A stretch of DNA of 6,068 bases, taken from the IMG/VR virus record IMGVR_UViG_2740892426_000002; one strand, given 5' to 3'. The stretch is from a virus (taxonomy: Duplodnaviria > Heunggongvirae > Uroviricota > Caudoviricetes). Below are positions 728 through 4,092 of this stretch, one piece after another (the first letter of the stretch is position 1; each line of letters starts with the position of its first letter). Below the pieces are notes generated by a model that searched no databases, had not been told where the DNA came from, and saw only the letters and a list, made by a program, of their open reading frames with translations. Both the position numbers and the translations under genes were made by a program.

Positions 728-1111
728 TCAATTAGAATTATTAGCAACGATATCCATATCTAACCGGATATCTAATGCCATTAACATCCCTTCAATTATG
801 CCCTCAGCCTTCTGTAACCTTTTCCCGATATAACCATCCGAGCAGCAATGCTTACTTGCCAGTGACATGAATGTCATACCACATACATAATAATCTACTA
901 ATAAATCGTGTAAATCGCTGTTGTTCTTTTTCAGACGGGCCATGCACCCGCAAATGATCATCGCGTCATCGTCACAACATTGCGGGCGAGATTTTACTTT
1001 TGAAGGAATTAATCCCTTAAAACCGGCGGCAACGGACGACCAGGTCACATCTTCATGATTATTAGCCGCCCACGCTCCCCAACGCTCAAGAACCATCTGA
1101 ATATCACGCAT
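728..1111 (-). CDS. quuD: Lambdoid prophage late-gene antiterminator Q homolog (QuuD-like, 127 aa, Cys-rich putative Zn-binding)
   Basis: ORF 728..1126 (-) reads [24 protein letters not shown]...[19 protein letters not shown]...[19 protein letters not shown]...NNSN. I prefer the ATG at 1111..1109, which has GGAG 7 nt upstream (TTGTGGAGTAAGTTGATG) and gives 127 aa; the ORF-track start at 1126 is a TTG. Stop TGA at 730-728. It follows rusA-ylcG as in DLP12. Confidence 0.85.
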
Positions 1112-1196
1112 CAACTTACTCCACAAAAATCAGACCAGAACGCCAATTACAAGCAAAAATCAACAAAACAGTATTAGTTGATTGTTATCTCTGACT

Positions 1197-1337
1197 TCAT
1201 ACTCCTGCTCCTGTCAGGGTTTTGGCGTAATTCTTCAGTATTCGGTAATCGGTCAAAACAGAACCAGGAAAACGATATAAGCGCAGGCGCACCCAGCGGC
1301 GGCGAAGACGCTCTGCCATATAAGACTCAAACATCAT
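1197..1337 (-). CDS. ylcG: Small DLP12-type prophage protein YlcG-like (46 aa); below the ORF-track length cutoff
   Basis: Hand translation of the minus strand from ATG 1337..1335 gives [46 protein letters not shown], with TGA at 1199-1197. The start overlaps the rusA stop (ATGA). The 46-aa length and position between rusA and Q match ylcG; residue-level identity was not checked. Confidence 0.6.
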
Positions 1338-1696
1338 TCATCTCCCAGTTCAGTGATAGTCAGCTCCAGCTTCCCACCTTTGGTAACGGGCATCTTCACA
1401 ACGCGGTAATCAACGACCTGAGCATCATCCAGCCAGAAACCTGCTTTGGTGAGTGCGTCAAAAGCGGCCTTTTGCAGATTATCAAGGTCACGGCGACGGC
1501 GATCCGGCATGTGGCACTCAATGCTGATTTTCACAGGAATAGCCAGGCCGATATCCAGCATTGCGTTTTTAATGATTCGGGCGACATTATCGCGGTATGC
1601 CTGCCCCTCTGCGCTGATATGCGTGCGTCCGCGATTATGGCGGTAATAGCGATTATTGCTCGGCGGCCAGGGTAATGTGATGCTGTAGGTATTCAC
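1334..1696 (-). CDS. rusA: Holliday-junction resolvase RusA (crossover junction endodeoxyribonuclease), 120 aa
   Basis: Translation [50 protein letters not shown]...[48 protein letters not shown]...TITELGDE matches RusA as I recall it. The ATG at 1696 overlaps the ybcO stop (ATGA). Confidence 0.92.
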
Positions 1697-1983
1697 GCCT
1701 CAATAACCCCCTCTTTCAACCAGATAACCTGTGTTCTCGCCATACCTTCCAGCGCGCATTCTTTTGCATATCCAGCGTCAACAAAATGCGTGCGACGGTC
1801 GATTTCGTCGTGGCAGGCAGAACATGCAATGGTGGCAATCAGGTCTGGCGGTTTGATACCGGTACAGCACAATCCAGCCAGCCGGATATGTGCCAGTACT
1901 GACGTTTCAGGATTGCCATTACATACGCCAGGGATTCTTACCTGGCATTCCCGACCACGCGCTGCTTTTCTCAAATCAGCCAT
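1693..1983 (-). CDS. ybcO: DLP12-type prophage protein YbcO (putative Cys/His metal-binding nuclease, 96 aa)
   Basis: Internal ATG at 1983..1981 is preceded by a perfect AGGAGG (AAGGAGGAATCATG) and yields [35 protein letters not shown]...[44 protein letters not shown] (96 aa). The ORF-track start at 2022 is a TTG lying inside ninE. Stop TGA at 1695-1693. Confidence 0.85.
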
Positions 1984-2146
1984 GATTCCTCCTTGCTGCC
2001 AGTCGCAACCATTTTTTATCAACCAGGCTGGCGGTATACCCGAGCAGTGTTGGTATTTCGGATGGCTTCAGCTCAGGTTTACGCTTACGACGATTTGGTA
2101 CTTTGTAGATGTGTCCGTTCATGACACGAATAAGCGGTGTAGCCAT
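1976..2146 (-). CDS. ninE: NinE-like small nin-region protein (56 aa); below the ORF-track length cutoff
   Basis: Hand translation from ATG 2146..2144 gives [56 protein letters not shown], with TGA at 1978-1976. The ATG overlaps the ybcN stop (TAATG) and the 3' end overlaps the ybcO start by 8 nt. Basic, Arg/Lys-rich small protein, as expected for NinE. Confidence 0.75.
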   Translation of the reverse strand: MATPLIRVMNGHIYKVPNRRKRKPELKPSEIPTLLGYTASLVDKKWLRLAARRNHG

Positions 2147-2601
2147 TACGCCTCCTGCTTGTCGCGCAGCAGCTGGAACTCGCAGCTCTGCGGAATAGTC
2201 AGGTGGCAGCCAATATTCATCGCCCAGGCTTCAACCTTACACAGGAAGACATACATCTCTCCGGTATCAAGATCGGAGGTATGGCGTAACGACTGGATAG
2301 TAGTGATTTCGCCGGTTACGACATCAACCAGGTCCTTGGTTTCATAACCGAGGTATGTGTGTTTGAGAGCATCTTTTACCCATGCTGCGGTAGCGAACGA
2401 TTTCCCCCTGCTGATGAGGTATTCACTGATTTCGCTGTACCACATATGGCTGAGTGCATTCTGGGAAAGACTGCGTTTCTCACGCCACGGTTTAAGCACC
2501 ATGCGAAAGCATTTTCCGTCCTCCAGATAAGGCTGGATCTGCTGGCCGATAGCGATGAAGTTACCGCGATGCAGTTTGATGCCATCTTGTGGTAGGTTCA
2601 C
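2146..2601 (-). CDS. ybcN: YbcN, probable NinB/Orf-family recombination-associated protein, 151 aa
   Basis: ORF with GTG start at 2601..2599 preceded by GGAGGT at a 5-nt spacing. Translation [62 protein letters not shown]...LRDKQEA. The [11 protein letters not shown] segment resembles the lambda Orf/NinB core as I recall it. Confidence 0.85.
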
Positions 2602-2699
2602 GCTTCACCTCCACAGAGGTCAGACGCTGGATGCAAAAAAACGCAGGTGCATTTCTGCATCTGTGAAGGGAGAAGAGAGTTTGGATTGTGTGTGCGCAT
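2598..2699 (-). CDS. ylcH: Small ORF (33 aa) in the position of DLP12 ylcH, just upstream of and overlapping the ybcN start
   Basis: Minus-strand ATG at 2699..2697, with GGGGA 5 nt upstream, gives [33 protein letters not shown]. The TGA at 2600-2598 overlaps the ybcN GTG (GTGA). Length and position fit ylcH, but the ORF also contains a terminator-like hairpin plus T7 run, so it may be a non-coding leader instead. Confidence 0.4.
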
Positions 2700-2754: not shown

Positions 2755-2783
2755 ATTATGGCGAATTGATTATTCATAATCAA
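2755..2783 (-). promoter_or_regulatory. Candidate sigma70 promoter driving the minus-strand ylcH-ybcN-ninE-ybcO-rusA-ylcG-quuD chain
   Basis: Minus strand reads TTGATT (-35, complement of + 2778-2783), a 17-nt spacer, then CATAAT (-10, complement of + 2755-2760). The predicted start near 2748 falls inside the inverted repeat. Sequence-pattern match only. Confidence 0.3.
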
Positions 2784-3048: not shown

Positions 3049-4092
3049 ATGAAAATTAACAAGATATTATCATCTGCAACACTATTGTATGGTATGTCAA
3101 TGGCCATGTCGGTCGGGAGTTGTGCAACACCTGTCCAGACTAATCTTCCTGGTTACACCCCGGGTGCAGATATCATTAGTGTTTCACCGACCAGAAACCA
3201 AGTCGATCTCATTGGTGATGTTGTTTATTCCCAGATAAAAGGAACTCGTTCTGTCAGACAGCTTCACATGTCAGTTCTTGTCCCGCGAACAAATGATTTA
3301 AAACCAGCCATTATTTATTATCCCGGCGGCGGATTCATGTCTTCTGAACATGACAAATTTATTGAAATGAGAATGGCTCTGGCAGAAGCTGGTTTTGTTG
3401 TGGCCGCTGTAGAATACAGAACAATTCCTGATACATTTCCAGCACCAGTTGAGGATGGAAAAGCTGCAATACGTTACCTGAGAGAGCATGCCAGCAATTA
3501 TGGGATTGATCCTCAAAGAATCGGAGTTCTGGGTGACTCTGCCGGTGGATGGCTTGCTCAGATGATGGGAACTACAAATGGTGACAAAACCTTTGATAAA
3601 GGTGACTTTCTTCAGCAATCCTCAGATGTTCAGGCAGTTGCCACACTTTATGGGATTTCTGACTTGTTGAATATTGGCGAGGGGTTCCCTGAATCAGTGC
3701 AGGAGGTTCATCGCTCTCCTGCCGTAACCGAAGCCTTAATGATCAATGGCCCTGCATTCAGAAATTTTGCGGGAGCCCCCATCACAGCGTCAAAAGAAAA
3801 AGCGCTAAACGCCAGTCCAATCGGACATATGAAAGGAGTAAAACCCCCATTTCTTATTATGCATGGTAGCAAAGACACTCTGGTTTCACCTGAGCAAAGC
3901 GCCAAACTATTCAGGATGTTGAAGAAGAACGGCGATAACGCTGAGTACGTGCTGGTAGAAGGGGCCGAGCATGGCGATAAGACATGGTATCAGCCAATTA
4001 TTATAAACAGAGTCGTTGAGTGGTTTACTAAAAACCTGGGAGCGCCTATAAAAACAGCTCCCCAACAACAAAACCCAAACGCTAACCTGTAA
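3049..4092 (+). CDS. Secreted, probably lipoprotein, alpha/beta-hydrolase fold esterase/lipase (HSL/Abhydrolase_3-like), 347 aa
   Basis: N-terminal signal peptide MKINKILSSATLLYGMSMAMSVGSC with lipobox-like SVGS-C (Cys25). Oxyanion-hole-type motif YYPGGGF, nucleophile elbow GDSAGG, candidate acid in HGSKD and His in GAEHG are in the order expected for the catalytic triad. Stop TAA at 4090-4092. The Shine-Dalgarno is weak and the start context AT-rich. Confidence 0.85.
   Translation: MKINKILSSATLLYGMSMAMSVGSCATPVQTNLPGYTPGADIISVSPTRNQVDLIGDVVYSQIKGTRSVRQLHMSVLVPRTNDLKPAIIYYPGGGFMSSEHDKFIEMRMALAEAGFVVAAVEYRTIPDTFPAPVEDGKAAIRYLREHASNYGIDPQRIGVLGDSAGGWLAQMMGTTNGDKTFDKGDFLQQSSDVQAVATLYGISDLLNIGEGFPESVQEVHRSPAVTEALMINGPAFRNFAGAPITASKEKALNASPIGHMKGVKPPFLIMHGSKDTLVSPEQSAKLFRMLKKNGDNAEYVLVEGAEHGDKTWYQPIIINRVVEWFTKNLGAPIKTAPQQQNPNANL

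Follow-up and report, generated by a model that had tools for sequence, protein, structure and literature searches.

The virus record IMGVR_UViG_2740892426_000002 (Uroviricota; Caudoviricetes) holds a stretch of DNA of 6,068 nucleotides (nt), hereafter called the window, and on its minus strand seven open reading frames (ORFs), ylcH, ybcN, ninE, ybcO, rusA, ylcG and quuD, follow one another in such a way that the stop codon of one gene overlaps the start codon of the next at every junction except the last. Does this arrangement mean that the genes are translationally coupled and regulated together, and are the three smallest of them (i.e., ylcH, ninE and ylcG) genuine small-protein genes, as had been proposed from the letters alone (hereafter the original prediction)? 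Our answer, which we hold with a probability of about 70%, is a joint one: the chain is a nin block of known type, ribosomes would be handed from gene to gene at the overlaps, and ylcH would serve as a leader ORF.

The identity of the chain is the first part of this answer. Protein-family matches (Pfam, NCBIfam and PHROG) were obtained for six of the seven ORFs, ylcH being the exception with no family match in any of the three collections. The product of quuD, annotated under this name in LF82, K-12 and PAR, matches Pfam PF06530 (E 9e-54) and is by this family a Q-type late-gene antiterminator; that of rusA matches PF05866 (E 5e-22) and NCBIfam NF007305 (273.6 bits) and is identified in the same way as a Holliday-junction resolvase. 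The ybcO product is a putative nuclease (DUF1364/YbcO, HNH-like; PF07102, E 4e-41; phrog_131), and ybcN, the biochemistry of which has been described (PMC4118853), is assigned to the Orf/NinB family of recombination mediators (NF007281, 276 bits; phrog_72 NinB/Orf, E 4e-52). The matches of ninE are to NF007245 (141 bits vs. a cutoff of 88) and phrog_288, with a score slightly under the cutoff for the Pfam family NinE PF05322 (23.6 vs. 25 bits), and those of ylcG are to NF033498 (76.3 bits vs. a cutoff of 30) and phrog_2705. Upstream, beyond inserted cargo, lie the replication genes P, O and ren, as seen in the identical or near-identical copies in LF82, 4A7 and PAR. The chain is thus placed between O/P/ren and Q, contains NinB/Orf, NinE and a resolvase, and has overlapping stops and starts, which by gene content and order makes the region the ninR-type delayed-early gene block of a lambdoid prophage of the DLP12/phage-82 type.

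Such a chain is already known and annotated gene for gene; it is the textbook nin arrangement of lambdoid phages. The gene names and the architecture given by the original prediction match public annotation exactly (K-12, LF82 and phage 82), and RefSeq annotates all seven ORFs in LF82 and PAR. The 1589-nt stretch to which that prediction referred is 100% identical to many E. coli chromosomes (LF82, SE15, NRG857C and others) and to inducible phages including 4A7, 1W and 3W, and it is present at a coverage of at least 80% in 2907 of 5426 complete E. coli genomes. The further claim that gene finders miss the small ORFs applies to ylcH in most phage records; in RefSeq E. coli genomes all three are annotated. 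The features of the chain and of the region ahead of it are listed in Table 1.

Table 1. Positions of the genes of the chain and of the leader elements in the window, with the pooled ratio of nonsynonymous to synonymous polymorphism (pN/pS; aa, amino acids).
Feature	Position (nt)	Strand	Description	Pooled pN/pS
Sigma-70 promoter-like site	2755-2783	minus	TTGATT-17-CATAAT; promoter scan	
Hairpin H1	2724-2750	minus	9-bp stem, conserved 9-nt loop CCUGAACAA	
Hairpin H2	2693-2719	minus	GCGCUAAACG-GGGA-CGUUUAUGCGC	
Hairpin H3 + U-tract	H3 2641-2666; U-tract 2635-2641	minus	wholly inside ylcH	
Hairpin H4	2602-2627	minus	inner stem ACCUC/GAGGU at 2607-2620; pairs the ybcN Shine-Dalgarno sequence with the ylcH 3' end	
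ylcH	2598-2699	minus	33 aa, ATG start; script on the window	1.02
ybcN	2146-2601	minus	151 aa, GTG start; start overlaps ylcH stop	0.18
ninE	1976-2146	minus	56 aa; ATG shares 1 base with ybcN stop	0.15
ybcO	1693-1983	minus	96 aa; ATG 8 nt within ninE	0.13
rusA	1334-1696	minus	120 aa, GTG start; overlaps ybcO stop	0.18
ylcG	1197-1337	minus	46 aa (or 45 aa); ATG overlaps rusA stop	0.50
quuD	728-1111	minus	127 aa; last gene of the chain	0.19

Phage 82 (GenBank X92588; Mahdi, Sharples, Mandal & Lloyd 1996) has the same gene order (orf33-orf151-orf56-orf96-rus-orf45-Q) and the same overlap lengths, with 94.5% DNA identity over 94% of the query, and its record annotates a ribosome-binding site (RBS) at every junction, a putative promoter and the inverted repeat of H1. 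It differs from the window in that orf45 (ylcG) overlaps a 229-aa Q of family PF06323 by 4 nt, whereas the window has an 85-nt spacer at this place and a Q of family PF06530. In the DLP12 prophage of K-12 the order ylcH-ybcN-ninE-ybcO-rusA-ylcG-quuD occurs with spacing identical to that of the window; the flanking cargo differs, being an esterase and an inverse autotransporter in the window and ybcL and ybcM in K-12. The ninR region of lambda, which has been described as a "chain of interlinked genes" (Kroger & Hobom 1982, Gene 20:25), likewise lies between P/ren and Q and contains NinB/Orf, NinE and a Holliday-junction resolvase followed by Q, and its eight junctions from ninB to Q all overlap (by 4, 4, 34, 4, 11, 4, 23 and 4 nt). 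Unlike the chain of the window, however, it has ninC, D, F, G, H and I, carries Rap in place of RusA and lacks ylcG and ybcO. The lambda terminator tR2 is found 25 nt upstream of ninB, at the same relative position as H3; no ORF runs over tR2, and our scan found no promoter-like site there.

The second part of the answer concerns the junctions. A script run on the window confirmed that the seven-ORF chain is real, with junctions that read GTGA for ylcH/ybcN (4 nt overlap), TAATG for ybcN/ninE (1 nt), ATGGCTGA for ninE/ybcO (8 nt), GTGA for ybcO/rusA (4 nt) and ATGA for rusA/ylcG (4 nt), and with a spacer of 85 nt (1112-1196) and no overlap between ylcG and quuD. The junction list of the original prediction is the same save at ybcO/rusA, where it had ATGA; the start of rusA was GTG in all 45 unique homologues examined. 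The start of ylcG is ambiguous, as ATGATG allows a protein of 46 aa (4-nt overlap) or of 45 aa (1-nt overlap), and RefSeq uses both, depending on the record. A Shine-Dalgarno (SD)-like motif precedes all starts of the chain, with anti-SD duplex energies of -5.7 to -11.7 kcal/mol, and it lies inside the preceding ORF or, for quuD, in the spacer, so that downstream starts and their SDs are within or overlap the upstream ORFs.

A chance pattern of ORFs was ruled out by the reverse strand. Across 243 distinct related segments, 900 of the 1372 coding-strand ORFs of at least 50 codons (66%) have a stop overlapped by the SD-preceded start of a partner ORF of at least 30 codons, versus 14 of 1139 (1.2%) on the reverse strand. 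Homologues were collected from 279 loci of Escherichia, Enterobacter, Citrobacter, Huaxiibacter, Siccibacter and Phytobacter and from viral contigs. Walking the chain from the ybcN homologues at these loci gave 138 distinct gene-content architectures, in which 517 of 598 nin-chain junctions overlap (86%, a share somewhat inflated because the walker prefers the nearest start), mostly by 4, 1 or 8 nt. These overlap classes (-4, -1 and -8 nt) are retained across unrelated gene contents. Gaps are found at module boundaries, as with the 85 nt before quuD in the window and gaps of 36-101 nt in other chains.

The third part of the answer concerns the small ORFs. Protein-level selection was shown for every gene of the chain except ylcH, and what had been put forward as three small proteins is therefore reduced to two. 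NinE has one of the low ratios of Table 1, in the range of the larger genes. YlcG looks relaxed among close relatives, while its diverged versions keep the pattern RW..LR..R.......DYRIL.N; for each invariant residue, three to five different synonymous codons are in use, which places YlcG under protein-level selection. By these signatures NinE and YlcG behave as real proteins. The stationary-phase induction of ylcG is stated in PMC12844172, which cites Hemm et al. 2008 for it; this citation is the sole direct expression evidence. None of ylcH, ylcG and ninE is mentioned in the bioRxiv version of Weaver et al., supplements aside. We noticed that ylcG always overlaps its upstream gene by 4 nt (ATGA), whether this encodes RusA, NinG/Rap or a small unknown ORF, and that it always stands immediately before the Q gene, which comes from three unrelated Pfam families (PF06530, PF06323 and PF03589). 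The basic motif of YlcG might, as a matter of speculation, mean binding to nucleic acids. A second terminator-like hairpin with a T-rich tail lies inside ylcG (1278-1295, minus strand), shortly upstream of Q; its stem is weak and rich in G.U pairs, and it may be due to chance, the terminator scan having returned 6 sites vs. 2.4 +/- 1.4 expected.

With ylcH the pattern is the opposite. A test for purifying selection on its amino acids across the homologues came out negative: the variable sites are distributed over the three codon positions as 27/26/22, and codon changes bring amino-acid changes. The conserved residues each use a single codon (H = CAT, K = AAA, T = ACC and A = GCG), and the constraint on ylcH hence acts on nucleotides. 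Different phage types have N-terminal halves that show no relationship to each other. The bases CACAATC, which the E. coli and Enterobacter types share, fall in frame 0 in the former and in frame 1 in the latter, a 1-nt indel further on restoring the frame. A CUGAAC string, similar to the loop of H1, recurs within the N-terminal region of ylcH in the Enterobacter-type leaders. What is kept is the frame itself. In all 202 unique leaders it stays open over 31 codons or more, up to a TGA that overlaps the ybcN start (NTGA); an ATG-initiated ORF of 29-33 codons is found in 196 of them, the inspected exceptions having GTG there, and a GGGGA-like (i.e., SD-like) motif is present in 202 of 202. These patterns favour a reading of ylcH as a leader (upstream) ORF within a structured RNA over one as a conserved peptide. 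In a combined study of proteome and transcriptome (PMC8910356), ylcH RNA was changed and a protein value was absent; ylcH was among the changed DLP12 transcripts, and ybcN, ninE, ybcO, rusA, ylcG and quuD were not. The change of the ylcH transcript alone fits a leader, if only weakly.

Further analyses revealed that the region ahead of ybcN has a promoter-like site at its left end and four hairpins, for all of which covariation was shown. A -10 sequence (NATAAT or CATACT) is present in 196 of the 202 unique leaders and TTGATT at a spacing of 17 bp in 112. The sequence upstream of the site is unrelated between loci, which makes the site the left boundary of the leader module, and the phage 82 record annotates it as putative -35/-10. 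A palindrome, TTGATT-N6-AATCAA (2766-2783, minus strand), overlaps the -35 sequence and the spacer in most but not all leader types and looks like an operator. The spacing of the FNR consensus, TTGAT-N4-ATCAA, does not fit it.

H1 adjoins the promoter-like site and would form the 5' end of a transcript starting there. It has a folding energy of -15 kcal/mol (z -5.7), with 94.3% of cells paired across 59 distinct versions, against 58.4% after shuffling (0/500), and with seven of eight pairs changed on both sides. Many of its pairs are G.U, which places the structure on the sense RNA strand. The loop keeps the consensus N-Y-U-G-R-R-C-A-M while the stem varies freely (50 distinct inner stems), a conservation that suggests a binding site or a tertiary contact; the phage 82 record annotates H1 as a "possible regulator-binding site". 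As a lambda CI operator H1 was rejected by eye, on half-site similarity only and a wrong spacing. H2 (-14.4 kcal/mol, z -5.1) carries the SD-like GGGGA of ylcH in or next to its loop and the ylcH AUG (2699-2697) in its 3' arm; with 18 distinct inner stems, 93.5% of cells are paired, versus 62.8% after shuffling (0/500), and all six pairs have changed on both sides. In the phi80 record it appears only as "IR4".

H3 has a GAAA loop on a 9-bp stem that includes two A.C mismatches, and was also matched by the terminator scan (2662..2639). Its cells are paired to 98.3%, seven of nine pairs have changed on both sides, and the columns of the U-tract are at least 90% conserved. The covarying stem and the U-tract on the strand predicted to be transcribed make H3 like an intrinsic terminator. 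H4 is paired in 92-94% of cells, with changes on both sides in four of eight pairs; its local fold alone is weak (-6.4 kcal/mol, z -1.9). For H3 and H4 together, 95.7% of cells are paired versus 81.0% after shuffling (0/500), and slid controls gave 32-49%. The whole leader folds with -58.7 kcal/mol (z -5.3). H3 and H4 were obtained with RNAalifold on 40 diverse leaders. MAFFT and RNAalifold on full-length leaders recovered both, and did not recover H1 and H2, the variable stems of which were misaligned; these were assessed by loop-anchored gapless alignments and by an arm-swap test. An Rfam cmscan of the whole window at E<=1 returned only a chance snoRNA match, elsewhere in the window.

In its design the leader resembles two known systems. 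The leader small ORFs (smORFs) of idlP-iraD and of pssL-pssA, baxL and others in Weaver et al. 2019 overlap, like ylcH, the start of the next gene out of frame, and as in the concept developed there the SD of the downstream gene is occluded by structure (bioRxiv 10.1101/511675). These smORFs are backed by reporters, whereas ylcH is known here from sequence alone, and ylcH also spans a terminator-like hairpin. The trpL and hisL attenuators share with the ylcH leader a promoter, a short leader ORF and a terminator-like hairpin before the structural genes. A classical attenuator of the trp type was rejected, however, as H3 is within the ORF, 30-odd nt ahead of the stop codon and not after it, as the hypervariable peptide has no conserved run of regulatory codons, and as no conserved alternative antiterminator pairing was found among the leaders.

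How would such a chain work? Where the last stretch of one gene contains the start codon and SD of the next, the finishing ribosome would already be placed at that start, and the hand-off could proceed by re-initiation or by local melting of the RBS. Translational coupling at the overlaps is plausible in view of the junction sequences. The support is indirect, and it is reasonable to infer coupling from the SDs within upstream ORFs, from the overlaps that persist over changes in gene content and from H4. Occlusion of an RBS by structure is predicted for ylcH to ybcN, the one junction of the five that was examined for it, through the covariation of H4. Continuous ribosome cover on the mRNA would limit Rho-dependent polarity, and transcription and translation would thereby reach Q, which is the important gene for the lytic switch. 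The nin region of lambda is reported, in the title of a 1995 paper by Cheng, Court and Friedman, to have regions of Rho-dependent termination. Knockdowns by CRISPR interference (CRISPRi) in lambda nin are polar on Q (PMC10695390), from which the lambda nin block behaves as one transcription unit ending in Q. Given the Rho-dependent regions and this polarity, continuous translation would help expression to reach Q.

At the entrance of the chain, a ribosome translating ylcH would cover H3 and the U-tract and so block the terminator hairpin, and it would unwind H4 and open the RBS of ybcN. The leader would then have to be translated for the nin/Q block to be entered, and without ylcH translation a short leader RNA would end at H3. 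Termination at tR2 is reported to be repressed when translation ends nearby (PMC4824070), and a role as leader ORFs is reported for smORFs that overlap larger genes at their 5' ends (bioRxiv 10.1101/511675). As with coupling and Rho protection, we infer here the activity of the promoter, that of the terminator and its suppression by translation.

Several points weigh against this interpretation. Coupling was deduced from the anatomy of the junctions, and the overlaps could largely reflect genome compaction. The pN/pS values of Table 1 are pooled over pairs that are not independent. The alignments behind the paired fractions of H1 and H2 came from hairpins pre-selected for at least four or at least three loop-adjacent pairs; the arm-swap test, with no pre-selection of hairpins, gave 8.2 vs. 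4.0 consecutive pairs for H1 and 6.75 vs. 3.31 for H2. Minimum-free-energy folding of the window's own leader gives a 3' half unlike H3/H4; the alternative long-range pairing that this single-sequence fold proposes was set aside, being without covariation support. The SD of ylcH is weak (-5.7 kcal/mol) with the AUG in a stem, and in 86% of leaders the third frame, too, runs open over 30 codons or more, by which the openness of ylcH alone is weak evidence of translation.

Also to be counted here is that in the domesticated state, in K-12, the chain appears from published expression work not to be a single simple regulon. The co-regulation claimed by the original prediction is partly right; what does not agree with it is the reported activation of rusA-ylcG by HusR and the reported need for a promoter from an insertion sequence (IS) in K-12. 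HusR (YnfL) is reported to bind upstream of rusA in K-12 and to activate rusA-ylcG in stationary phase (PMC12844172). With the box sequence taken from Table 1 of that paper, an exact match, CAGGTAAGAATCCCTG, is found in the window at 1929-1944 (minus strand, inside ybcO), where none is expected by chance, and the stationary-phase activation of rusA-ylcG could therefore apply here too. The operon of DLP12 is reported to be poorly expressed, and rusA to need promoters from an IS (PMC4118853). This need argues that transcription from the promoter-like site ahead of ylcH seldom continues into the operon, which is also what a functional terminator at H3 would predict.

Among the alternatives, the one that holds up best is that the overlaps are a by-product of genome compaction, each gene initiating at its own SD with no important hand-off, and we consider it unlikely as the account of the chain. 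It is in keeping with the SD-like motif at every start, most of these motifs being strong (-10 to -12 kcal/mol) and able to support independent initiation, with the gaps at module boundaries, which occur without obvious harm, and with the internal regulator site reported for rusA-ylcG (PMC12844172). It does not account for H4, a covarying hairpin that locks the ybcN SD with the end of ylcH and that is sensible only if upstream translation matters, nor for overlap classes that are kept while the genes themselves are exchanged. Compaction and coupling are not mutually exclusive and can both hold, and compaction without coupling is possible for the four junctions that are without structural evidence.

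A second alternative, which we regard as quite unlikely, is that ylcH is not translated and that its open frame is incidental to a structured leader, a tR2-equivalent that is read through by antitermination-modified polymerase. The open third frame, the weak SD and the AUG held in the H2 stem would be expected in that case, the constraint at the level of nucleotides accounts for the conservation, and lambda carries, at this place, a simple terminator without an ORF. The invariable frame with its TGA/ybcN overlap, the ATG of 196 leaders and the GTG of the inspected exceptions, the GGGGA-like motif in every leader and the indels that compensate each other between phage types so as to restore the frame speak against it, and ybcN, with its SD sequestered by the 3' end of ylcH, would be poorly translated without an upstream ribosome.

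It is very unlikely that the product of ylcH is a functional small protein of 33 aa, expressed along with the recombination genes. The ORF is annotated as a coding sequence in K-12 (b4588), in RefSeq E. coli genomes and in phage 82 (orf33), and the conservation of its frame, NTGA overlap and ATG ORF in the leaders would suit a protein as well; the listing of its RNA as changed with no protein value (PMC8910356) does not. Neither do a pooled pN/pS of about 1 with variable sites spread evenly over the codon positions, a single codon for each conserved residue, which points to constraint on nucleotides, N-terminal halves that are unrelated and shared bases that are read in different frames, the lack of a family in Pfam, NCBIfam and PHROG, and a conserved stretch that coincides with the covarying hairpin and its U-tract. 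Hardly credible, finally, is that H1 is an extra N-utilisation (boxB-like) site and the leader an N-dependent promoter-nut-terminator cassette: if written as U-GAACA-A, the H1 loop makes a GNRA-like pentaloop with U-A as its closing pair and resembles boxB of lambda and P22, and it is conserved while the stem covaries and a terminator-like hairpin follows downstream, but the candidate was rejected as the same hairpin occurs in phages without an annotated N gene (identically in HK639, the record of which has put-like antiterminator RNAs, and in 4A7), as no boxA-like sequence was seen by eye, as the loop variants GAACG and GAGCC break the GNRA pattern, and as the loop is constant across phages with differing early-regulatory regions (judged from 4A7 and HK639), N/boxB pairs being phage-specific.

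The surroundings of the chain are those of a decayed prophage. Over its whole length the window has 100% matches in strain PAR and similar genomes, and the PAR copy lies at icd, with a frameshifted integrase and O gene, gpJ and lysozyme pseudogenes, and IS elements in place of the immunity and pR region; its cargo comprises sitABCD, a porin, an esterase and a 3.9-kb inverse autotransporter. Despite this decay the nin chain is intact in PAR, with all seven ORFs. The cargo between the replication genes and the nin leader varies by strain: in the window it is an alpha/beta-hydrolase gene (3049-4092, plus strand) and the 3' part of the 3.9-kb inverse-autotransporter gene with Ig-like repeats (4129-6068, minus strand), and at the equivalent place LF82 and 4A7 have emrE/qacE, the ybcK recombinase and the same esterase, and K-12 has ybcL and ybcM. 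On the other side of the chain, between the stop of the porin gene (497) and that of quuD (728), a 42-bp unit is perfectly duplicated in tandem (635-717). Each copy holds a G+C-rich hairpin, GGGGCGTTTCCACGCCCC, with T/A runs on either side, and is terminator-like on both strands. Of the 21 loci that have this hairpin, only the window has two copies, LF82, 4A7 and PAR having one each, and the best-matching genomes span 6026 nt versus the 6068 of the window. The small RNA IpeX of DLP12 is said to be processed from the prophage porin transcript (PMC12197685), and 635-717 is the region downstream of the porin gene.

Returning to ribosome hand-off and a ylcH leader as the preferred interpretation, its consequence for annotation is that ylcH (b4588, orf33) is not to be counted as a conserved bacterial small protein, while YlcG and NinE are. 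Beyond this, we propose tentatively, and with some doubt, that the module of ~185 nt ahead of ybcN is an uncharacterised cis-regulatory RNA, widespread among lambdoid phages, through which entry into the nin/Q block is gated. In this proposal an RNA of ~115 nt would stop at H3 when the leader is not translated, and translation would bring read-through together with translation of ybcN. The module moves as a unit and precedes NinB genes of both the YbcN type and the lambda type in phages of Escherichia, Enterobacter, Citrobacter and Klebsiella. Copies occur ahead of a lambda-type NinB in HK639, and also in phi80 and in phages of Enterobacter and Klebsiella. Public records annotate only pieces of it (i.e., the "putative promoter" and "possible regulator-binding site" of phage 82 and the "IR4" of phi80). 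If the proposal is true, the leader would be a translation-dependent checkpoint en route to late-gene expression, and it might explain why rusA is silent in cryptic prophages until an IS supplies a promoter downstream of the leader.

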